Part shown: positions 47,980-61,478 of the stretch, piece by piece | How positions within the stretch are numbered: the stretch's first letter is position 1 | How the letters are laid out: every line of letters starts with the position of its first letter | Assembly (NCBI RefSeq): GCF_048771995.1 | Contig: NC_133041.1 | Location: 4,663,324-4,727,323, forward strand | Direction: 5' to 3' | From: Taeniopygia guttata | Taxonomy: Eukaryota | DNA: 64,000 nt | The notes under the pieces: generated by a model | Database searches by the model: none | Told to the model about the DNA's origin: nothing | Seen by the model: the letters and a program-made list of their open reading frames with translations, nothing else | Program-made: the position numbers and the translations under genes

Positions 47980-48081
47980 TCAGTGGCCGCAGAAGACGGC
48001 GTGAGCGGCCAGGGCGACCCCTCCGGCCGCGGCGATGGCGACTTCGGCCATGAGAGTGACCACAGCGACGGCCAACGGCTG
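47980..48081 (-). CDS. CLN3: CLN3 terminal exon, translating QPLAVAVVTLMAEVAIAAAGGVALAAHAVFCGH followed by a stop
   Basis: The reverse-complement translation aligns with the human CLN3 C-terminus [32 protein letters not shown]. The acceptor cccccag| is at 48082/48083 and the stop codon is the complement of 47980-47982. Confidence 0.72.
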   Translation of the reverse strand, partial: QPLAVAVVTLMAEVAIAAAGGVALAAHAVFCGH

Positions 48082-48707
48082 CTGGGGGAGGGGCAGCTGC
48101 GGACAGCGGGCAGCGGTCACTCGGGGTCACTCGGGGTCACTCGGGGTCACTCGGGGTCACTCGGGGTCACTCAGGGGTCACTCAGGGGTCACTCATTGGT
48201 CACTCAGTGGTCACTCAGGGGTCACTCATTGGTCACTCATTGGTCACTCGGGGTCACTCAGGGTCACTCATTGGTCACTCGGGGTCACTCAGGGTCACTC
48301 AGGGGTCACTCATTGGTCACTTGGGGTCACTCGGGGTCACTCGGGGTCACTCAGGGTCACTCAGGGGTCACTCGGGGTCACTCATTGGTCACTCAGGGGT
48401 CAGGGGTCACTCAGAGTCACTCAGGGTCACTCGGGGTCACTCGGGTCACTCAGGGTCACTCAGGGTCACTCGGGGTCACTCGGGGTCACTCGGGGTCACT
48501 CAGGGTCACTCAGGGGTCACTCATTGGTCACTCAGGGGTCACTCAGGGTCACTCAGGGGTCACTCATTGGTCACTCAGGGGTCACTCAGGGGTCACTCAG
48601 GGTCACTCAGGGTCACTCAGGGTCACTCAGGGTCACTCAGGGTCACTCAGGGGTCACTCGGGGTCACTCAGGGGTCAGAGGTCACTCCGGGGTCAGAGGT
48701 CACTCAC

Positions 48708-48851
48708 CTCTCCGGCCAGGTTGGCGAATCCGTTCCCGTAGGCCCCTCCCCCCACCAGCCCCTCCCCCACCATCAGCGCCGCGGCCACGCCCAGCCCCGG
48801 CAGCAGCTGATTGGTCGCCACCGCAGCCAATAGGAACGCGGCGAGCAGCGC
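48708..48851 (-). CDS. CLN3: CLN3 exon, translating ALLAAFLLAAVATNQLLPGLGVAAALMVGEGLVGGGAYGNGFANLAGE
   Basis: Aligns to human [51 protein letters not shown]. The acceptor ccccag|gcg and donor gagag|gtgagtgacc are read on the minus strand. Confidence 0.82.
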
Positions 48852-48899
48852 CTGGGGGCGGGGCCAGCAGAGGGGCGGGGCCAGCACAGGGGGCGGGGC

Positions 48900-50590
48900 C
48901 AGAGGAAATGGGGGAAAAAAGAGAGAAACGGGAAAAATTAGTTAGAAATGGGGAAAAATGAGTTTAAAATGGGGTAAACGGGGGAAAAATGGGGGAAAAA
49001 TGGGGGAAATTGGGAACATTGGGGGAAAATGGAGGAAATGGGGAAAAATGGAGGAAATGGGGAAAAATTTGGGAAAATGGGGAGAAAATGGGGGAAATTG
49101 GGGAAAAAATTGGGGGAAATAGGGAAAAAATGGGGAAATTGGGGGGAAATGGGGAAATGGAAGAAATAGGGGGAAATGGGAAAAAAGGGAAAAATAGGGG
49201 GAAAAATTGGGGGAAAAATTGGGGGAAAAATTGGGGGAAAAATTGGGGGGAAAAATTGGGGGAAAAATGTGGAAATTGGGGAATAGATGGGGGAAATTGC
49301 AGAAAATGGGGGAAATGGGGAAAAAAGGGGGAAATTTGGGATAAAATGGGGGAAATAGGGAAAATTGATAAAAACGGGGGAAATCGGGAAAAAATGGGAA
49401 ATTTTGGATTAGAGTTGGGGGAAATTGGGGAAAAATGGGGGGAAATGGGAAAAAAATGAGGTAAACATGGGGAAAATTGGGGAAAATGAGTTAAAAATGG
49501 GGAAAATGGGGGAAAATGGGGAAAATGGGGGGAAATGGGGGAAATGGGGCAAAAAATGGGGGAAATTAGTTTAAAATGGGGAAAATTAGTCAGAAATGGG
49601 GAAAGTTAGTTAAAAATGGGGAAAGTTAGTTAAAAATTAGGGAAATGGGGAAAAACGGGCAAAATGGGAAAAAAATTGGGAAAAATGGGGGGAAATCAGG
49701 AGAAAATAGGGGAAATGGGGGGAAAAAGAGAGAAATGGGAAAAACGAGTTAAAATGTTGGAAATAAGGGAAAAAATTGGGGAAATGGGGAAAAAATGGGG
49801 GAAATGGGGAAAAATGGGGGAAATGAGTTTAAAATGGTGAAAATGAATTGAAAATGGGGAAAATGAGTTAAAATGGGGAAAATGGGGAAAAGACGGGGAA
49901 AACAGGGAAAAAATGGGGAAAATGAGTTAAAAATGGGCAAAATTGAGGGAATAGGGGAAATTCGGGGGGAATTGGGGAAATTTGGGGGGAAATGGGGAAA
50001 TTTGGATTGAAATTGGGGCAGGATTGGGATCTGTGGGGCAGGGCGGGGATCTATGGGGCAGACAGGATCTATAGGGCAGGATTTCAGGATCTATAGGTCA
50101 GACAGGATCTATAGGTCAGGAATGATCTATGGGTCAGGATCTGTGGGTCAGATCTATGGGGCAGACCTGTGCCAGCGCCAGCCCCCAGAGGGATCCATGG
50201 GGCAGGATTGGGATCTATGGGTCAGGATTTCAGGATCTATGGGTCAGATCTATGGGTCAGACAGGATCTATGGGTCAGGATTTCAGGATCTATGGGTCAG
50301 GATTTCAGGATCTATGGGTCAGGATTTCAGGATCTATGGGTCAGACAGGATCTATAGGGCAGGAATGATCTATGGGTCGGATCTATGGGTCAGACAGGAT
50401 CTATGGGGCAGATCTATGGGGCAGACCTTGGCCAGCGCCAGCCCCCAGAGGGATCCATGGGGCAGGATTGGGATCTATGGGTCAGGATTGGGATCTATGG
50501 GTCAGACAGGATCTATGGGTCAGGATTTCAGGATCTATGGGTCAGGATGGATCTATGGGTCAGATCTATGGGTCAGATCTATGGGGCAGA
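48900..50590 (+). repeat. ggggaaaatggggaaat array (48900-50000), then ggatctatgggtcaggatttca array (50000-50590) with two embedded copies of the CLN3 exon edge cagcgccagcccccagagg (about 50169 and 50428)
   Basis: The real exon edge is at 50592-50612. Confidence 0.8.
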
Positions 50591-50591
50591 C

Positions 50592-50685
50592 CTGAGCCAG
50601 CGCCAGCCCCCAGAGGCGCCGCAGGCGGACCCAGCGCAGCGACGAGCGGGAGGCGAAGACGCCGGCCTGGTACAGCAGCTGCAGC
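50592..50685 (-). CDS. CLN3: CLN3 exon, translating (T)[31 protein letters not shown]
   Basis: Aligns to human [32 protein letters not shown]. The acceptor is gcccag|gctg and the donor ctcag|gtctgc. Confidence 0.85.
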
Positions 50686-51650
50686 CTGGGCGGGAAGGGG
50701 TTAAAATATCACATTTTTGGGGTAAAAAACGGCGATTTCGGGGCTGAAAATTTGGGGGAAAAATTGGGATTTTTTGGGGTTAAAAATGGGATTTTTGGGA
50801 GATAAAATTTGGGATTTTTGGGGGGAAATTTGGGATTTTTTGGGGTTAAAAATGGGATTTTTGGGCATAAAATTGGGGAATTTTGGGGTTAAAATTTGGG
50901 ATTTTTTGGGGTTAAAAATGGATTTTTTTGGGGGTTAAAAATGGGATTTTTGGGGGAAAAATGTGGCAATTTTGGGGTTAACGTTCAGGAGTTTTGGGGT
51001 TAAAAATGGGATTTTTTTGGGGGTAAAATTTGGGAATTTTGGAGTTAAAATTTGGGAACTTTCGGGACAGGATTTGGAATTTCGGGGATAAATTTTGGGA
51101 ATTTTAGAGATAAAAGTTGGGAACTTAAGGGGATAAAATTTGGGGATTTTAGAGATAAAATTTGGGAATTTTCAGGACAGAATTTGGAATTTTGGGGATA
51201 AAATTGGGGGATTTTGGGGGGATAACATTTGGGAATTTTGGGGTTAAAGTTTGGGATTTTTTGGGGGGAAAATGGGATTTTTGGGGGATAAAATTGGGGA
51301 ATTTTAGAAATAAAAATGGGGAGTTTTTGGGGATAAAATTGGGGAATTTTAGAGATAAAATTTGGGAATTTTCAGGACAGAATTTGGAATTTTGGGGATA
51401 AAATTTAGAGATTTTGGGGAGGTAAAATTTGGACATTTTGAGGGATAAAAATTGAGAACTTTTGGTTGAAAATCGGGAATTTTGGGTATGAAAACCTGGG
51501 AATTTTCGAGGATAAAATTGGGAATTTTTGGGGATAAATTTTGGAAAATTTCAGGGGGATAAAACCGGGAATTCGGGCGACAAACCTGTGGAATTTTGGG
51601 GTAAAAAAGGGGAATTTTTGGGGTAAAAAAGGGGATTTTGGGTCACTCAC

Positions 51651-51706
51651 GTGCGGTACTGGGCGCTGTGGGGGAGGGGCGAGGAGGGGAAGTAGAGCAG
51701 CTCCAT
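51651..51706 (-). CDS. CLN3: CLN3 exon, translating MELLYFPSSPLPHSAQYR(T)
   Basis: Aligns to human FELLFFWNTSLSHAQQYR. The acceptor is ccacag|atg and the donor cgcac|gtgagtgacc. Confidence 0.78.
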
Positions 51707-52269
51707 CTGTGGGGGAGGGGCGGGGCGGGGCTTAAAAACACAAGCCCCGCCCACTACTCAAATATGCAAATCGCGCCCCTCCCCCACCCCAAATCTGCCA
51801 TATTTTCCCCTCCCCCACCCCAAACCCGCCATTTTAGCCCCTCCCCCACCCAATTTCCCCCATTTTAGCCCCTCCCAAACTCATTAGGCCCCTCCCCCAC
51901 CCCAAATCCACCATCTTGGACCCCTCCCCCACCCCAAATCCGCCATATTTTCCCCTCCCCCACCCCAAATCTGCCATTTTAGCCCCTCCCCACCCTAAAT
52001 CTGCCATATTGGACCCCTCCCCCCTCCCCAAATCCGCCATTTTATCCCCTCCCTCACCCATATCCGCCATTTTGGATTCTTCCCCCACCCCAAATTTGCC
52101 ATTTTAGCCCCTCCCCCATAAAAAATCCACCATCTTTCCCCTCCCCCACCCCAATTTAGCCCCTTCCAAACTCTTTAGGCCCCTCCCCCGGCCCTTTAGG
52201 CCCCTCCCCCACCCCCTCAAGCCCCTCCCCCACCCCAGGCCCCTCCCCCTCAGGCCCCGCCCCTCTCAC

Positions 52270-52338
52270 CAGCCCCATGTTAACGAAGTACTCGGCGAAG
52301 TAAACGACGCTCAGTGGCGCCCCCTGCCGGAGCGCGGC
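52270..52338 (-). CDS. CLN3: CLN3 exon, translating AALRQGAPLSVVYFAEYFVNMGL
   Basis: Contains VVYFAEYFxNxGL, diagnostic of CLN3 (human PLVVVYFAEYFINQGL). The acceptor is cccccag|gcc and the donor ggctg|gtgagag. Confidence 0.85.
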
Positions 52339-54068
52339 CTGGGGGGGCGGAGCTTGTTTAGGCCACGCCCCCTTTTAATCACAAAGCCCCTCCCACCGCC
52401 CCAAGCCCCGCCCACTCCCTTCAGCCCCTCCCCTCCGCAAATTTCTGAATTTTAACCACAAAAATTCCCATTTTTTACCCCGAAATCTTTGAATTTAAAC
52501 CCCCAAAACCCCCAAAATTTTAATCGCCAAAATTCTCAATTTTTGACTGCAAAATTTCTGGTTTTTTACCCAAAAAATCCTAAATTTTATCCCCCAAATT
52601 CCCAAATTTTATCCCAAAAATTCCAAAATTTTAACTCAGAAACACTTAAAATTTGATCCAAAATTTCCCCAATTTTTTAACCCCAAAAATTCCCATTTTT
52701 TACCCCAAAATTTCCGAATTTAAAGCCCAAAATCTCAAAAATTCCAAAATTTTATCTCAGAAACACTTAAAATTTGATCGAAAAATTACCCAATTTTTTA
52801 ACCCCAAAAATTCCCATTTTTTTATCGAAAAATTCCCAAATTTAAAGCCCAAAATCTCAAAAATTCCAAAATTTTAACTCAGAAACACCCAAAATTTGAT
52901 CCAAAAATTCCCCAATTTTTTAACCCCAAAAATTTCCATTTTTTACCCCAAAATTTCCAAATGTAAAGCCCAAAATTCCAAAATTTTCTCCCCTAAAATT
53001 CCCATTTTTTAACCCCAAAACTCCCAAATTTTCTCCCCAAAATTATCAAACTTTATCCCCAAAATTCCCAAATTTTAACCCCCAAATTTTGTGGTTTTTT
53101 TTAAACCAAAAATCCCAAGTTTTAACTCTAAAACACCCAAAATTTGATCCAAAAACACCCCAATTTTTTAACCCACAAAATTTTCAATTTTTAACCCCAA
53201 AACTCCCAAATTTTTACCTCAAAATTCCAGATTTTAACTCCAAAAATTCCCACTTTTTCCCCAAAAAAATTCCCAAGTTTAATCCAAAAAACTCCCAATT
53301 TTTAACTCCAAATTTCCGGTTTTCAACCCTTAAAATTTCCATTTATTTACGCAAAAATCCCAAATTTTATCCCAAAATTTCTAGTTTTTTTAACCCATAA
53401 ACCACAAAATTTAAGCTCAAAATTCCTGAATTTTATCCCCAAAAATTCTCAAATTTTAACTCCCAAACTCTCAATTTTTTACCCCAAAATTTCCAGTATT
53501 TTTACCCAAAAATACCAAATTTCATCCCCAAAATTCCCAAATTTTAACAACAATACTCCCAATTTTTATCCCCAAATTCCCAATTTTTAACCACAAAACT
53601 CCCAAATTTTAACTTCAAAATTCCAAGTTTTAACTCCAAAAATTCCAATATTTTACCCCAGAAATTCCCAGTTTTTAACTCCAAATTTCCAGTTTTCAAC
53701 CCTAAAATTTCAGGTTTTTTACCCAAAATTCCCAAATTTTATCCCAAAATGTCTAGGTTGTTTTAACCAATAAACCACAAAATTTAACCTAAAAATTCCC
53801 AATTTTTTAACCGCAGAAATCCCAAATTTTAACCCCCAAACTCTCAAATTTTAACCCCAAAATTTTCAGGATTTTTTACGGAAAAATACTAAATTTCATC
53901 CCCAAAATTCCCAAATTTTAACAACCATATACTCCCAATTTTTATCCCCAAAATTCCTAATTTTTATCCCCAGAATTCCCAATTTTTTACCCCAAAATTC
54001 CCAATTTTGGACCCAATTTCCCCTTTAAGCCCCGCCCCTTTCTCACCGTGGCCCCGCCCCCTTCTCAC

Positions 54069-54175
54069 CTTGGCCACGCCCCATTTCTCGGCCCAGGCCC
54101 CGCCCCCTTGGTCCGGGGGGGGGAGGGGCGGCTCCGGCGGGGGGGGAGGGGCGGGGCCCAGCAGGAAGAAAAAAC
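54069..54175 (-). CDS. CLN3: CLN3 candidate exon, translating ..FFLLGPALPPPPEPPLPPPDQGGGAWAEKWGVAK; its 5' boundary and junction phase are unresolved
   Basis: The 3' part ...AWAEKWGVAK|gtgaga aligns to human ...LSLRERWTVFK and joins the next exon in phase 0. The 5' part FFLLGPALPP resembles YFLLLTSPEA. Phase at the upstream junction does not close with the candidate acceptor cctcag| at 54176. Long poly-C runs (9 C) in the exon could hide an indel. Confidence 0.45.
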
Positions 54176-55393
54176 TGAGGGAAAAAAAGGAAAAATTGGG
54201 AAAAAATTAAAAATATTCATTAAAAACGGGAGGGGGAGGGGCCAAGGGAGGCCACGCCCAATCCGGGAGGGTTTTGGCGGGAAAATGGGGAAATTTGGCG
54301 GGAAAATGGGGAGGTTTTGGGACAAAAATTGGGATTTTTGGAGATAAAAAATTTGGGAAATTTTGGGGATAAAATCTGGGAGTTTTGCGGTTAAAATTTG
54401 GGAATTTTAAGGGTAAATTTTGTGACTTTCTGCGGATAAAAATTGGGAATTTTGGGGTTAAAACTTGGGAATTCTTGGGGTTAAAAATTCACAATTTTGT
54501 GGATAAAATTGAGAGTTTTGGGGATAAAATTTGGGAATTTCTGGGGTTAAAATTTGGTAATTTTGGGGACAAAATTGGGGAATTTTGGGTTAAAAATTGG
54601 GAAATTTTGGGATAAAACTTAAGAATTTTGGGATAAAATTTGGAATTTTTGGGTGAAAATTTGGAACTTTCGGGGAAAAAACGTTTGGGAACTTGGGGTT
54701 AAAAGAATTGGGAAATTTGAGAATTTTTGGGATGAAATTCAGGGATTTTGGGGTTAAAAACAGAATTTTTGGGTTAAAATTTGTCATAATTGGACATTAA
54801 AAATTGGACAACTTTGGGCTTAAAATTGGGAATTTTTAGGTTAAAAATTGGGATTTCGGGGATAAAATTTGGGAATTTTGATGTTAAATTTTTGTATTTT
54901 GGGGTAAAAAACCTGGAAATTTTGGGGTTAAAAATTTGGAGTTTCGGGGTTCAAAGTTTGAGAATTTTTGGGCATAAAATTTGTGAATTTTGAGCTTAAA
55001 TTTTGTGGTTTATGGGTTAAAAACCTAGAAATTTTAGGATAAAATTTGGCAATTTTGGGTAAAAAACTGGAAATTTGGAGTTTAAAATTGGGAATTTTTT
55101 GGATAAAAATTGGAATTTTTTTGGGTAAAGAATGGGGATTTTTGGAGTTAAAATTTGGAATTTTGAGGTTAAAATTTGGGAGTTTTGTGGTTAAAATTTG
55201 GGGTTTTGGGGTTAAAAATTGAGAATTTTCGGGTTAAAATTTGGCGTTATTGGAGGTTAAAAATTCAGGAATTTGGGGTTAAAATTCGGGAATTTTTTGG
55301 GGTTTAAACTGGGAAGTTTCAGGTTAAAAATTTGAGATTTTTTGGGGTTAAAATAAAGAATTTTGGGTGAAAAAAAGGAAATTTTGGTCTCAC

Positions 55394-55534
55394 CTGAGCA
55401 GCATGAGGGGGGGCAGGGCCAGGAAGGGCAGCAGCGAGTGGGGGAGGGGCAGCCACGCCCGCAGCCCCCAAAACGCCAAAGCCCCGCCCAGCCCGGCCCC
55501 GCCCGTCCCCGACGACCAATGGGAGAGCCCGGAG
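55394..55534 (-). CDS. CLN3: CLN3 exon, translating (S)[46 protein letters not shown]
   Basis: Aligns to human [48 protein letters not shown]. The acceptor is ccgcag|ctcc and the donor gctcag|gtgagacc. Confidence 0.78.
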
Positions 55535-56266
55535 CTGCGGGGGGCGGAGCCCGGTCAGAATGGCCACGCCCACTTCGAATTTTACTCAATTTCTGCGATT
55601 TTTGACCCAATTTTGGGATTTTGACCCAATTTTTGGGATTTTGGACCAAATTTTTGGGATTTTGGTCCCAATTTTTGGGATTTTTGGACCCCATTTTGGG
55701 AGATTTAAACCAATTTTAAAGCCTCAGCCCCAATTTGCATAGCCACGCCCACCTGACCCCGCCCAAATCCAATTTTTTGTAAATTTAAACGAATTTTCGC
55801 AAATTTTGACCCAATTTGGGTGATTTTGACCCAATTTTGCTGATTTTGACCCCATTTTTGGATAATTTAAAGTCATTTTAGAGCCCCAACCCCATTTTTG
55901 CATAACCACACCCACCCACAAAAAGCTCCGCCCAGTTGGCCCCACCCCAAATCCTTTTTTTTTTGTAATTTTGGATAAAATTCGTCCAATTTTGACCCAA
56001 TTTTGGGTGACTTCGACCTGATTTTGTAAGATTTAAACAAAATTTAAAGCCCCACACCCACTTTTGCATAACCACGCCCCCCACAAGAAGCCACGCCCAC
56101 AAGGCAAAAAAAATTTAACAATTTTGGTGATTTTTGACCAAATTTGAGAAATTTTGCCCCAAATTTTTGGGTTTTTTTTGGCCCCTCCCCCTTCTGAGGT
56201 GTGGCCCCAGGTGGGCGTGGCCCTGAGGTGAGGCCACGCCCCCCGAGCGAGGCCACGCCCCCTTAC

Positions 56267-56339
56267 CTGGGGTAGGAGGAGGCCAAGGTCAAGAAGGTCA
56301 CCTCGCCAAGCCCCGCCCCCGCACTGCCCAGCGCCACAC
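56267..56339 (-). CDS. CLN3: CLN3 exon, translating (G)[23 protein letters not shown](S/R)
   Basis: Aligns to human [25 protein letters not shown]. The acceptor is cactcag|gt and the donor ccccag|gtaagg. Confidence 0.85.
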
Positions 56340-57195
56340 CTGAGTGACCAATGGGGGAGCGTGAGTGACCGGTGAGTGACCTCTGACCCCGAGTGACACT
56401 GAGTGACCCATGAGTGACCCCAGAGTGACCCCTGAGTGACCAATGAGTGACCAGTGAGTGACCCCGAGTGACCCTGAGTGACCCTGAGTGACCACTGAGT
56501 GACCCCTGAGTGACCAATGAGTGACCCTGAGTGACCCCTGAGTGACCAATGAGTGACCAATGAGTGACCAATGAGTGACCAATGAGTGACCACTGAGTGA
56601 CCCCTGAGTGACCCCGAGTGACCCCTGAGTGACCAATGAGTGACCCCGAGTGACCAATGAGTGACCAATGAGTGACCAATGAGTGACCCCGAGTGACCAA
56701 TGAGTGACCAATGAGTGACCCCTGAGTGACCCCTGAGTGACCCCTGAGTGACCCTGAGTGACCAATGAGTGACCAATGAGTGACCCTGAGTGACCCTGAG
56801 TGACCAATGAGTGACCAATGAGTGACCCTGAGTGACCAATGAGTGACCAATGAGTGACCAATGAGTGACCCTGAGTGACCCTGAGTGACCAATGAGTGAC
56901 CCTGAGTGACCCCTGAGTGACCACTGAGTGACCCCTGAGTGACCCCGAGTGACCCTGAGTGACCCTGAGTGACCCTGAGTGACCACTGAGTGACCCCTGA
57001 GTGACCCCGAGTGACCCTGAGTGACCCTGAGTGACCCTGAGTGACCCTGAGTGACCACTGAGTGACCCTGAGTGACCAATGAGTGACCCCGAATGACCCC
57101 TGAGTGACCCCTGAGTGACCCTGAGTGACCCCTGAGTGACCCTGAGTGACCCCGAGTGACCCCTGAGTGACCCCGAGTGACCCCGAGTGACCGCT
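56340..57195 (+). repeat. gtgaccaatgagtgaccc / gtgaccctgagtgaccc array between two CLN3 exons, the reverse complement of the GTGAGTCAC-type donor satellite
   Basis: On the minus strand it reads ggtcactcagg units. It abuts the acceptor of exon 56267-56339 and the donor of exon 57199-57284. Confidence 0.88.
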
Positions 57196-57198
57196 CAC

Positions 57199-57284
57199 CC
57201 CCCAGGCCGCTCAGGGTCCCTCTGGCCGCGGCCACGGCGCTGAGGCTGCCCCAGAGGCAGAGAGCCACGGCCACCGCGCGGCAC
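57199..57284 (-). CDS. CLN3: CLN3 exon, translating (R)CRAVAVALCLWGSLSAVAAARGTLSGLG(G)
   Basis: Aligns to human [28 protein letters not shown]. The acceptor is ccgtag|g and the donor gggg|gtgagcgg. Confidence 0.8.
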
Positions 57285-57299
57285 CTACGGGACAAAAAT

Positions 57300-58800
57300 C
57301 CCCTTTTTTACCCCCAAAATTCACTTTTTTAACCCCAAATTCCCTTTTTTAAATAAAAACAATTCTTTTCCCAAAAAAAATCCGTTTGTACCTCTCCAAA
57401 ATTCCATTTTTTCCCCCCTTAAATCCCGTTTTCTCTCTAAAACTTGCATTTCCTGCCGTAAAAATTCCCATTTTTTACCTCAAAATTCCCTTTTCACTCT
57501 AAATTCCCTTTTTCTGCCTAAAAATCCTTTTTCCCCAAAAAAATTCTTTTTTTATTCCCCAAAGTTCCACTTTTTCCCCATAAAAATTTCCTTTTTTCAT
57601 TGCATATTCACTTTCTCCCCCAAAATTCCATTTTCCCCTATAAAAATCCCCCTTTTTCTCCCCAAAATTCCCTTTTCACCCAAATATCCCTTTTTAGCCT
57701 AAAAATCCTTTTTCCCCCAAAAAATTCTTTTTTTATTCCCCAAAGTTCCACTTTTCCCCCATAAAAATTTCCTTTTTTCACCCCCCAAAATTCCCTTTGC
57801 ACCCCAAAAATCCATTTTTTACACTAAAGTTGATTTCTGCCCCCAAAAATCCTTTTTTCTCTTTAAAAATTCCTTTCTCCCCTGAAAACTCCCTTTTAAT
57901 CTTTTAATTCCCAAATTTACAATTTTTCGCCCCAATATTCCCCTTTTTTCCCAAAAATCACACTTTTTTACCCTCAAATCCCCCTTCTCACCCCCAAATC
58001 CCATTTTCCATCCCAAAATTTCCCTTTTTTCCCCAAAAATCCCATTTTTTCCCTCTAAATTCCCCTTTTTTTTCTCAAAAATCCCATTTTTTCCCTCCAA
58101 ATTCCCCTTTTTTCCTGCATATTCACTTTCTCCCCAAAATTTCCATTTTCCCCTCTAAAATTTGCATTTTTCCCCATAAAAATTCTATTTTTTCACCCCA
58201 AAAATCCCTTTTTTACCCCAAAGTTGATTTTTTACCCCCAAAATCCCATTTTTTTCCCTAAAAATTCCTTTCTCCCCCTGAAAACTCCCTTTTAACCCCC
58301 AAATTTACAATTTTTGACCCCAAAATTCCCTTTTTTTCCCAAAAATCACACTTTTTCACCCTCAAATTCCCCTTTTCACCCCCAAATCCCATTTTCCATC
58401 CCAAAATTCCCCTTTTTTCCCCAAAAATCCCATTTTTTCCCTCTAAATACCCTTTTTTTCTCAAAAATCCCATTTTTTCCCTCCAAACTCCCTTTTTTCC
58501 TGCATATTCACTTTCTCCCCAAAAATTCCATTTTCCCTCTAAAATTTGCATTTTTCCCCATAAAAATCCACTTTTTTCACCCCAAAATTCCCTTTTCACC
58601 CTAAGTTCCCTTTTTCTGCCTAAAAATCCTTTTTCCCAAAAAAATTTCTTATTTTATTCCCCAAAACTCCACTTTTCCCCCATAAAAATTTCCTTTTTTC
58701 ACCTTCCAAAATTCCCTTTTTTTACCCCAAATCCCCTTTACCCCCCAAAATTCCCCTTTACACCCTCAACCTTTCTCATTTCCTCCCCAAAATTTGCATT
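57300..58800 (+). repeat. ccccaaaattccctttttt minisatellite with ~290-bp higher-order periodicity
   Basis: Seen directly (compare 57560-57780 with 58130-58330). Confidence 0.85.
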
Positions 58801-58909
58801 TTCCTCCCCAAAATCCCCTCCTTGCTCTCGCCCCGCCCAATTTAAGCCACGCCCCTTTATGCCACGCCCACTTTAATCCCCGCCCCTTTAAGCCCCGCCC
58901 CTTTCTCAC

Positions 58910-58989
58910 CTGTCGGGCAGGTACGGCCCCAGCAGGGGCAGCAGCAGCTTCACCACCAGGGCGGGGACGACGTCGGCCAATAGCACGGC
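58910..58989 (-). CDS. CLN3: CLN3 exon, translating AVLLADVVPALVVKLLLPLLGPYLPD(R)
   Basis: Aligns to human [30 protein letters not shown]. The acceptor is attcag|gcc and the donor gacag|gtgagaaag. Confidence 0.85.
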
Positions 58990-59029
58990 CTGAATGGCCA
59001 CGCCCACACGGCCACGCCCAGTTAAGCCC

Positions 59030-60400
59030 CACCCACTTTTAAATTTAACCCCTCTCTTAAAACCCCGCCCCTTTTAGCCACACCCAATCAAACCCTGCCT
59101 ATTTAAATCCCACCCCTTCAAGCCCCTCCTATTTAATCTCCATAATTTAAGCCCCGCCCATTTAGGCTCCGCCCTTTTAAGACCCTCCCACTTAAGCCCC
59201 ATCCCTTAAAGCATTTCCAATTTAAGCCCCACCCACAAAGCCCAACCCCTTTAAGCTCCTCCCACTTGAGCCGCACCCATTTAAGCCCCACCCCTTAAAG
59301 CTTTTCCCATTTAAACCCCACCCATTTAAGCTCCACCCCTTTAAGCTCCTCCTATTTAATCTCCATAATTTAAGCCCCACCCATTTAAGCTCCTCCCACT
59401 TAAGCCACACCCATTTAAACCCCACCCCATAAATTTTTTATGATTTAAACCCTGCCCATTTTAAGCCCCACCCCTTTAAGCTCCTCCCACTTGAGCCCCA
59501 CCCCTTTAAGCCCCACCCCTTAAAGCTCCTCCCATTTAAACCCCGCCCTTTTAAGCCCCACCCCTTTAAGCCCCTCCCTTTAAAGCCCCACCCATTTAAG
59601 CCCCGCCCCTCAAAGATTTTCCTATTTAAACCCCGCCCCTTTAAGCCACACCCCTTTAAGCTCCTCCCACTTGAGCCCCACCCCTTTAAGCCCCACCCCT
59701 CAAAGCTTTTCCTATTTAAACTCCGCCCATTTTAAGCCCCACCCCTTTAAGATCCTCCTATTTAATCTCCATAATTTAAGCCCCACCCATTTAAACTCCT
59801 CCCACTTAAGCCACACCCATTTAAACCCCGCCCCATAATTTTTTATTATTTAAACCCCGCCCATTTTAAGCCACACCCATTTAAGCTCCTCCCACTTAAG
59901 CCCCACCCATTTAAGCCCCACCCCAAAGCTTTTCCTAATTAAACCCCGCCCATTTTAAGCCCCACCCCTTTAAACTCCTCCTATTTAATCTCCATAATTT
60001 AAGCCCCACCCCTTTAAGCTCCTCCCACTTAACCCCCACCCATTTAAGCCCCACCTCCAAAGATTTTACTATTTAAACTCTGCCCCTTTAAGCCCCACCC
60101 CTTTAAGCTCCTCCCACTTGAGCCCCACCCCTTAAAGCCCCTCCATTTAAACCCCGCCCCTTTAAGCCCCACCCATTTAAGCTCCTCCCACTTGAGCCAC
60201 ACCCATTTAGGCCACACCCCTCAAAGCTTTTACCATTTAAATATTGCCCCTTTAAGCCACACCCCTTTAAGCCCCTCCTGTTAATGCCCCACCCACTTAA
60301 TCCCCACCCCTTTATCACCCTGTCACTTTAAGCCACACCCACAAAGCCACACCCTTTATGCCCCGCCCCTTAAGCCACGCCCCCTTAAGCCCCACCCACC
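59030..60400 (+). repeat. About 35 copies of a ~40-bp unit aagccccacccatttaagctcctcccacttaagccacaccc, dense in CCACGCCC / CCCCGCCC / CCACACCC (SP/KLF-type) boxes
   Basis: Seen directly. It lies in the CLN3 intron where the human gene encodes its first lumenal loop. Confidence 0.85.
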
Positions 60401-60573
60401 CCTGTCCCCACAGGGTCGCAGTCGTGCCGGCTCCGATTCCGCGGCTCCTCCCCCTAAAAAAACCCGGGAAAACCCCAAAAATCCAGTCAGGAAAGGGGCG
60501 TGGCCACCCAAAAAAGGGGCGTGACCATCTAAAAAGGGGTGTGGTCCCCAAAAAAGGGGGCGTGGCCACTCAC

Positions 60574-60649
60574 GGGGCGTGGCTCCAGCAGGTCGCGGGC
60601 GGCGCTGAGCATCACCACGTACGGGAGGTTGTTGCACAGCCCCAAAATC
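60574..60649 (-). CDS. CLN3: CLN3 exon, translating (W)[25 protein letters not shown]
   Basis: Aligns to human [26 protein letters not shown]. The acceptor is ctacag|g and the donor cgcccc|gtgagtgg. Confidence 0.85.
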
Positions 60650-61167
60650 CTGTAGGGGCGGGGCTTAGGTGGGCGTGGCCACACTTGTGGGCGTGGTCAC
60701 AGATGGGTGTGGCTCGTCTGGAAGGGGCGTGGTTATGGGGGAAAGGGGAGGGGCCAAAATGGGGCAGTTTTGGCGGGAAATTTTTATGGGGTTGGAGTGG
60801 GGTTTAAATGGGTGTGGCAAAAGGGGCGGGGCTTAAATGGGTGGGGTGTCCACAAAATGGCTCCATTTTGGCGGGAAATTTTGGGGGAGAGTCTGTGTGG
60901 GCGTGGCCACAGGTTGGAGGGTCCGAAATGGGCGGTGCTTAAATGGGTGGAGTGCCCCTAAAATGTCTCAAGTTTGGCGGGAATTTCTTAAATGGGGGAG
61001 GGGCTTAAATGGGTGTGGCCACTCAGGTGGGTGTGGTCCAAAATGGGCGGGGTTTAAATGGGTGGGGGTGTCTCCAAAAGTGCTGAGTTTTGGGGGGAAA
61101 TTTGGCGGTTTTAGGGGTGTGGGAGGGGCTTAGGGGGCGTGGCCTCTTGTGGGGGCGGGGCACTTAC

Positions 61168-61231
61168 CAAAAAGCGGCTCCGATTCGCCAGGAAGGGGTC
61201 GGAGGGGGCGGGGCAGGGGCGGAGTCTTCAT
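61168..61231 (-). CDS. CLN3: CLN3 exon 2, translating (D)EDSAPAPPPPTPSWRIGAAF(W)
   Basis: Aligns to human [28 protein letters not shown]. The acceptor is ccaccag|at and the donor tttttg|gtaagtgcc. Confidence 0.75.
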
Positions 61232-61447
61232 CTGGTGGGGAGGGAGGGAAAGAGAAAAATTTCCAAAGGGATTTTGGGGCAATTTTAGGAGATTTTGGGG
61301 TTGTTTTTTCCCATCCCGCTCCCCACTCCCGGTTCCATTTCCTGCCTCCATTCATGTCCGTTTATCCCCGTTTTAATTCCAGGTTTTTTACCCCGAATTC
61401 CCAATTTTTAACCCTATTTTTAAATCCATATTTTTTTCCCCTCTCAC

Positions 61448-61478
61448 CCTGCTGCAGCAGCGGTTCCTCGTCCGCCAT
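61448..61478 (-). CDS. CLN3: CLN3 exon 1 coding part, translating MADEEPLLQQ(D)
   Basis: The ATG is the complement of 61476-61478 and the donor cagcagg|gtgagag is on the minus strand. It joins exon 2 in frame. The N-terminus is acidic like human MGGCAGSRRRFSDSEGEE. Immediately upstream, on the minus strand, are the TCACGTGA and TCATGTGA boxes. Confidence 0.65.

Follow-up and report, generated by a model that had tools for sequence, protein, structure and literature searches.

An annotated 54-nt exon beside a dot-chromosome-type intronic minisatellite in the zebra finch CLN3 gene

A 2026 study of chicken genes introduced the term 'sequence stuttering' for an expansion that starts at exon borders and copies exon ends and splice sites (PMC12954441). 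Related species usually carry different repeats in their orthologous introns, from which recent, independent expansions were inferred (PMC12954441). The zebra finch has its own account of such sequence. Its dot chromosomes measure 5.99 ± 1.57 Mb, minisatellites make up about half of dot-chromosome euchromatin, and tandem repeats occupy >70% of dot-chromosome introns (bioRxiv 10.1101/2025.10.14.682431; 10.1101/2025.10.17.683159). The same work finds an excess of G4 motifs on the intronic coding strand, for which it suggests a link with splicing, and ties the minisatellites to sequencing drop-outs and to sequence missing from earlier assemblies (bioRxiv 10.1101/2025.10.14.682431; 10.1101/2025.10.17.683159). 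For the CLN3 gene itself, the reference is human. Human exon 3 ends at c.222, which puts c.222+2 in intron 3; T80 and R89 lie in exon 4, L101-Y124 in exon 5, and the next boundary is at c.375 (PMC6900386). N71 and N85, both in the first lumenal domain, are glycosylated (PMC6900386).

We have analysed CLN3, the gene for battenin (the Batten-disease protein), on the minus strand of a 64,000-nt stretch of the zebra finch genome, hereafter the window. An earlier reading of this DNA, the original prediction, had joined two CLN3 exons directly across 58990-60573, treated this interval as one intron filled with GC-box 40-mers, and reported that the intervening part of the first lumenal loop had no detectable coding counterpart. 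The interval instead consists of intron 3 (120 nt), exon 4 (54 nt) and intron 4 (1410 nt), and the 'missing' piece of CLN3 is an ordinary, already annotated 54-nt exon just upstream of the array. We give a probability of about 0.9 to the joint reading of the interval as intron 3, a constitutive exon 4 and an intron 4 minisatellite of the 'stuttered' dot-chromosome type that is near neutral. The overall verdict is an annotated micro-exon beside an intronic minisatellite typical of dot chromosomes, the smallest chromosomes of birds, both ordinary and already known; new, in a small way, is only that four passerine families have their orthologous introns filled with one and the same 15-mer.

The gene model was built from exact-peptide mapping of exons to zebra finch battenin X1, after which every AG/GT pairing of borders near the mapped blocks was tried. 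A single combination gives the 14-exon model, and its translation is identical to XP_041575470.2 at every residue (Table 1). When the joined exon translations were searched against proteins, the top match was Taeniopygia guttata battenin, with other passerines next. The Pfam family PF02487 (CLN3) is precomputed for P0001 and is present in all of the best battenin matches, from zebra finch and other birds, so the domain and the exact translation together identify the gene as the CLN3/battenin orthologue. SGF29 adjoins CLN3 in the Motacilla, Molothrus, Catharus and Guaruba loci. A sequence search of the PDB for a solved relative of CLN3 gave no match. Both exons on which the original prediction was built, exons 3 and 5 here, are real minus-strand exons, and a direct join between them would be in phase 0 (borders gtgagt and ttcag). 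Residue 216 (exon 9, window region 54135-54140) reads PPPPPE in the window and in XP_041575470.2 and PPPPPD in the older XP_041575470.1, so that zebra finch assemblies or individuals differ here in one residue.

Table 1. Features of the zebra finch CLN3 locus, in window coordinates.
Feature	Position	Strand	Description
Whole CLN3 coding region	47980..61478	-	14 coding exons, 396 aa; single GT-AG model = P0121 (XP_041575470.2)
Intron 2, dispersed opposite-orientation copies of the intron 4 15-mer unit	60656..61067	+	C-rich in pre-mRNA; 5 plus-strand core matches
CLN3 coding exon 3	60574..60649	-	76 nt, …W|ILGLCNNLPYVVMLSAARDLLEPRP, donor gtgagt; exact peptide match to P0001/P0121
Intron 3	60454..60573	-	120 nt; short 21-mer repeat (GGCCACGCCCCTTTTTT-like), T-rich tract before acceptor tttttag
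CLN3 coding exon 4	60400..60453	-	54 nt, phase 0/0, encodes GEEPRNRSRHDCDPVGTG (aa 58-75)
Intron 4	58990..60399	-	1410 nt; degenerate 15-bp minisatellite, sense TGGGTGGGGCTTAAA, ~90 units
CLN3 coding exon 5	58910..58989	-	80 nt, AVLLADVVPALVVKLLLPLLGPYLPD- (AVLLADVV…), acceptor ttcag; exact peptide match
Intron 5, first 80 nt	58830..58904	-	five further units of the intron 4 15-mer family, right after the exon 5 donor

Exon 4 lies in the 174-nt gap that separates exon 3 from the array, as an open frame bounded by tttttAG and GTgggt that restores the frame between exons 3 and 5. It was located by eye and then confirmed with the finch protein, whose residues 58-75 map exactly onto it; the protein reads …LLEPRP-GEEPRNRSRHDCDPVGTG-AVLLADVV…, and the segment is part of all three annotated zebra finch battenin isoforms (NCBI X1-X3). 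The peptide holds the core of lumenal loop 1 (NRS-RHDC-DPVGTG, that is, a sequon, R-x-D-C and S/G-T-G/A), with the sequon at N62-R-S and the invariant residues R66, D68, C69 and T74. These four are unchanged in a 15-species tetrapod alignment. The exon is present in 115 of the 123 homologs retrieved, and an N-x-S/T sequon stands <=6 residues upstream of R-x-D-C in every homolog in which the motif was found (109/109). A tblastn search with human CLN3 (low-complexity filter off) matched the neighbouring exons but not this 18-aa exon; its loop-like matches were due to chance only, one at 59340-59429 on the plus strand (the wrong strand) and one at 60755-60732 in intron 2 (the wrong order).

The DNA of other passerines points the same way. 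In the CLN3 loci of Motacilla alba, Molothrus aeneus and Catharus ustulatus, exon 4 is again 54 nt long, with identical tttttAG and GTGGGTGGGGCT borders. When the four species are aligned as DNA, most differences within the exon affect the third base of a codon (ACA/ACC/ACT, CCT/CCC, GAC/GAT, GAG/GAA), a coding-type substitution pattern that marks a conserved exon in all three loci. Both the exon and its splice sites being kept in these relatives, the comparison speaks against loss of the loop segment. Short transcript-like contigs from other birds also include it. Since the XP_ records XP_041575470-72 are computational models, we infer from annotation and conservation that exon 4 is constitutive in zebra finch. 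The original prediction had also allowed for a small exon hidden or lost in the array. A small exon does exist, but it is neither lost nor inside the array; it sits between exon 3 and the array. Zebra finch CLN3 thus keeps the conserved core of lumenal loop 1, and the apparent gap arose from a micro-exon overlooked in G-rich, repeat-dense sequence.

A shorter loop had been suggested as well, and here the length was right and the lineage was not. Counted from SAAxD to AVLLAD, passerines have 24 residues, other neognaths 25-28, ostrich 34, alligator 36, turtle 40, Xenopus 30 and a primate 37. All birds compared have one sequon in the loop, and the other species have two (as in primate) or three. 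Because every bird compared has a short loop with a single sequon, both the reduced length and the missing N71-type sequon are bird-wide and not specific to the finch lineage. Finch exon 3 is 21 nt shorter than human exon 3, and the N71 sequon is therefore absent from the finch protein. Human exon 4, which we take to be the c.223-c.294 region in phase 0/0, with the 3' boundary at c.294/295 by our own reckoning, has ~72 nt on that reckoning as against 54 nt in finch. In both species, exon 4 stands at the same place, between an exon ending in the …SAAxD-loop and an exon starting with AVLLAD, and encodes a sequon and an R-x-D-C-x-x-x-S/G-T motif. Finch exons 5, 6 and 7 are 80, 86 and 73 nt long, the same lengths that the human c. 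numbering implies. Given the placement of the human exons (PMC6900386) and the conserved motif, finch exon 4 is the orthologue of human exon 4 and keeps the N85-equivalent sequon.

Turning to intron 4, the tandem array of roughly 1.4 kb that had been seen between the flanking exons is real. Tandem Repeats Finder (TRF) places it at 59063-60399, with either a period of 15 (89.6 copies, 63% matches) or a period of 45 (29 copies, 70% matches, score 1016), and its coverage of the intron is 95%. The reported unit, a 40-mer in ~35 copies, does not describe it: the true unit is 15 nt long, degenerate and present in ~90 copies, and the quoted 41-mer (~2.7 units) occurs once exactly and seven times with <=3 mismatches. 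Variants of the unit include GGGGCGGGG, GGGAGGAGC, AGGAAAAGC and ATTATGGAGA, and when the sense strand is cut at each TTAA, most pieces are 14-16 nt long or a multiple of that. The autocorrelation has its main peaks at 15, 30, 45 and 90, with weaker ones at 134 and 223, and the higher orders of the array are 45/90/222/404. Internal duplications appear in a blastn self-comparison as a block offset by 404 nt with 89% identity and as an offset of 222 nt with 82% identity over 815 nt.

The composition of the array is strongly skewed. The sense strand of intron 4 has 43% G and 7% C, with 8.6 G-runs per 100 nt from the donor on and 11 G4-type motifs. Exact GGGGCGGGG sites number six among the ~90 units, as against 15 of GGGGTGGGG, and most units are GGGGTGGGG, GGGAGGAGC or A-rich variants; with a GC content of 50% and 17 CpG in 1410 nt, the label 'GC-box array' therefore overstates the case. 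An Rfam scan of the whole window gave no match.

The array opens with the 5' splice site, GTGGGTGGGGCTTAA, as its first unit and stops ~30 nt short of the acceptor. Matches to the 13-mer core GGGYGGGGCTTAA (<=1 mismatch) number 57 in the window, where 0.66 are expected, and 53 of them fall in CLN3 introns 2, 4 and 5. This concentration and the identity of the first unit with the splice site point to a local origin. At the start of intron 5, TRF finds a period of 15 in 4.9 copies, with three 15-mer core matches at 58842-58900. The last of the opposite-orientation copies in intron 2 forms the pyrimidine tract of the exon 3 acceptor. The separate 21-mer repeat of intron 3 is recognised by TRF at 60492-60569 with a period of 21. 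Among the 13 CLN3 donors, only two depart from GT[AG]AG, those of exon 12 (GTCTGC, 50592) and exon 4 (GTGGGT, 60399); each of the two starts an array that has the donor sequence inside its repeat unit.

The same 15-mer is found in intron 4 of the three other passerines, in ~55 copies over 1094 nt in Motacilla, ~47 over 718 nt in Molothrus and ~47 over 721 nt in Catharus, so that intron length among the four ranges from 718 to 1410 nt. The donor and the first two array units are invariant in all four, as conserved as exon 4. Further into the array, identity is 82-89% between finch blocks and 72-76% to the other species in any register, and the finch variants TGGGAGGAGC (eight copies) and ATTATGGAGA (four copies) are absent from the other three passerines. 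With the unit common to four families, the array would be old, not recent; we read it as probably predating the split of these families, with later turnover by block amplification. Amplification of 0.2-0.4-kb blocks is the best explanation for what looks like a rough doubling of copy number in the finch.

Outside the passerines, the unit differs. Crane intron 4 has a 14-mer, GAGGGGCGTGGGGG, beside the donor and a 19-mer, and parrot intron 4 has 100 copies of a different 19-mer and a short GGGGCGGGGCCTGAAG repeat at the donor. In Guaruba guarouba (L005 8389-10420), the ~100 copies of this 19-mer, CCCATTGCTCCCTATGGAT, show a 93% match. This is far more homogeneous than the passerine array and suggests that the parrot array is a recent expansion.

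Such arrays are the local norm. TRF covers 82% of the window, with ~50 arrays of >=300 nt, and the repeat units measure 10, 11, 21, 22, 27, 31, 41, 45 bp or more, often with a strong G or C skew of one strand. Tandem repeat makes up >90% of 10 of the 13 CLN3 introns, with a different unit in each; TRF-recognised repeats thus fill most introns of the gene, as in 'sequence stuttering', and the intron 4 array is not a special element. The sense strand is G-rich in introns 4, 5, 9 and 10 and C-rich in introns 2, 8, 11 and 12; CLN3 thus follows no single strand rule. Finch battenin is recorded on a 5.74-Mb contig, which is within the dot-chromosome size range. Judging only by that size and by the character of the sequence, the gene probably lies on a dot chromosome. 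As for how the array arose, G-rich sequence next to the donor would have been expanded by local slippage, unequal exchange or gene conversion in a GC-rich, highly recombining region, and the product would be spliced out with intron 4 and be near neutral.

Four other explanations have to be weighed against this one. The original reading, a single intron at 58990-60573 with the loop segment lost in this lineage or buried in the array, draws on the fact that exons 3 and 5 join in frame, in phase 0. Precedents for this join exist: it is the annotated form of Ammospiza maritima battenin (P0014, 341 aa; …EPRP|AVLLADVV), and two mammalian models, P0115 (Chinchilla) and P0118 (Rhinolophus), have it too (…GNQSH|AVLLADIL). 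We nevertheless find a single intron extremely improbable, given the 54-nt frame with AG/GT borders that encodes the conserved R-x-D-C core, its place in all three finch isoforms and its coding-type conservation in three other passerines. Within the array itself, the sense strand has 27-36 stops per frame and nothing like the loop peptide, and a hidden exon there was rejected. By its own standard, an extra exon within 58990-60573, the single-intron model is refuted as an account of the main product. Being in frame and having these precedents, the exon 3 to 5 join is plausible as a recurrent annotation miss of the micro-exon or as a minor skipping isoform, not as the main product, and some skipping of exon 4 may occur, since its GTGGGT donor is one of the two exceptions in the gene and a protein lacking the exon is annotated in Ammospiza. 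The miss seems to recur in at least one public passerine annotation (Ammospiza), and micro-exons of dot-chromosome genes therefore deserve a targeted check. Equally hard to credit is an assembly artefact, with low-complexity sequence mis-assembled or over-expanded. Dot-chromosome minisatellites did cause drop-outs and gaps in earlier assemblies (bioRxiv 10.1101/2025.10.14.682431; 10.1101/2025.10.17.683159), but four species, each with an independent assembly, have the same unit in the orthologous intron, and on both sides the array borders conserved exons that splice correctly. The precise number of copies could still be inexact or vary among individuals.

The other two give the array a function. 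That it might be a cluster of Sp1/KLF sites (GC and GT boxes) serving as an intronic enhancer or alternative promoter has in its favour the six GGGGCGGGG and 15 GGGGTGGGG sites in 1.4 kb and the retention of the unit in four passerine families. We hold this to be very unlikely, as most units are degenerate, CpG is sparse and GC content no more than 50%, crane and parrot have other units in intron 4, and neighbouring introns contain equally long arrays of unrelated units, so that the intron 4 array needs no special explanation. The G-rich array, or its donor-proximal units, might alternatively be an intronic splicing enhancer in which G-runs recruit U1 or hnRNP H/F for exon 4. Intronic enhancers made of G triplets are established in vertebrates. 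The array resembles them in its dense GGG/GGGG runs just downstream of a weak donor and a very short exon, although it is far longer than any described and the likeness is one of resemblance only. The density of G-runs on the sense strand from the donor on, the invariance of the donor and the first two units in four passerines, and the weakness of the GTGGGT donor, one of the two exceptions in CLN3, would all fit. So would the crane GAGGGGCGTGGGGG and parrot GGGGCGGGGCCTGAAG repeats, which differ and yet are G-rich and directly follow the same donor. The G4 enrichment on the coding strand of dot-chromosome introns, for which a link to splicing has been suggested, is in keeping with it (bioRxiv 10.1101/2025.10.14.682431; 10.1101/2025.10.17.683159). 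Even so, we think an enhancer unlikely. A few G-runs would suffice, which leaves the ~90 units unexplained; copy number and length vary twofold among species; and the sense strand of five other CLN3 introns is rich in C and nearly free of G-runs, yet their exons are in the same model. The last two points count against a role for the array as a whole; its first units may contribute to splicing as G-run enhancers.

A more speculative form of this idea, to which we give even less credence, is that exon 4, with its weak GTGGGT donor, needs the donor-proximal part of the array or the whole of it for splicing, and that passerines have retained it for this reason. Such a need could act through G-run enhancers or RNA G-quadruplexes, perhaps with pairing to the inverted copies in intron 2. 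If true, copy-number variation in a 'stuttered' intron would tune the inclusion of a conserved CLN3 lumenal-loop segment. The opposed 15-mer copies of introns 2 and 4 flank exons 3-4, an arrangement common to all four passerines. Inverted pairs between intron 2 (60656-61067, +) and intron 4 (58990-60399, -) reach 54 nt at 74% and 28 nt at 93% identity, and the copies could pair in the pre-mRNA. The predicted energy of an RNA duplex between the whole of intron 2 and the whole of intron 4 is -590 kcal/mol, against -454 ± 9 for shuffles, but other C-rich introns pair with the array as massively; composition dominates the measure, which therefore says little.

The intron 4 array fits the described systems, with one exception. 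Among these, the zebra finch dot-chromosome minisatellites come from the same species and have the same architecture, as the repeat share of the window illustrates (bioRxiv 10.1101/2025.10.14.682431; 10.1101/2025.10.17.683159). Their commonest units are multiples of 10-11 bp, unlike the 15 bp of intron 4; other CLN3 introns do have 10-, 11-, 21- and 22-bp units. With the stuttering described in chicken (PMC12954441), the finch gene shares introns filled by imperfect tandem expansion of a short local sequence, an array that begins at the exon-intron border, and intron lengths that differ among species. It also shows 'exon stuttering', in that the end of exon 12 and its donor are copied into the intron. 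The last ~24 nt of exon 12 (…LWGLALAQ; the true exon end is at 50592-50615 on the minus strand) recur, together with the unusual donor GTCTGCCCCATAGATC, twice in intron 12, at 50430-50453 and 50167-50190; exact-peptide matching finds six such copies in Motacilla and none in Molothrus or Catharus. The locus departs from the chicken pattern in one respect, that the CLN3 intron 4 15-mer is common to four passerine families. In an orthologous intronic minisatellite, the unit can thus persist across several passerine families even as copy number and higher-order blocks undergo turnover.
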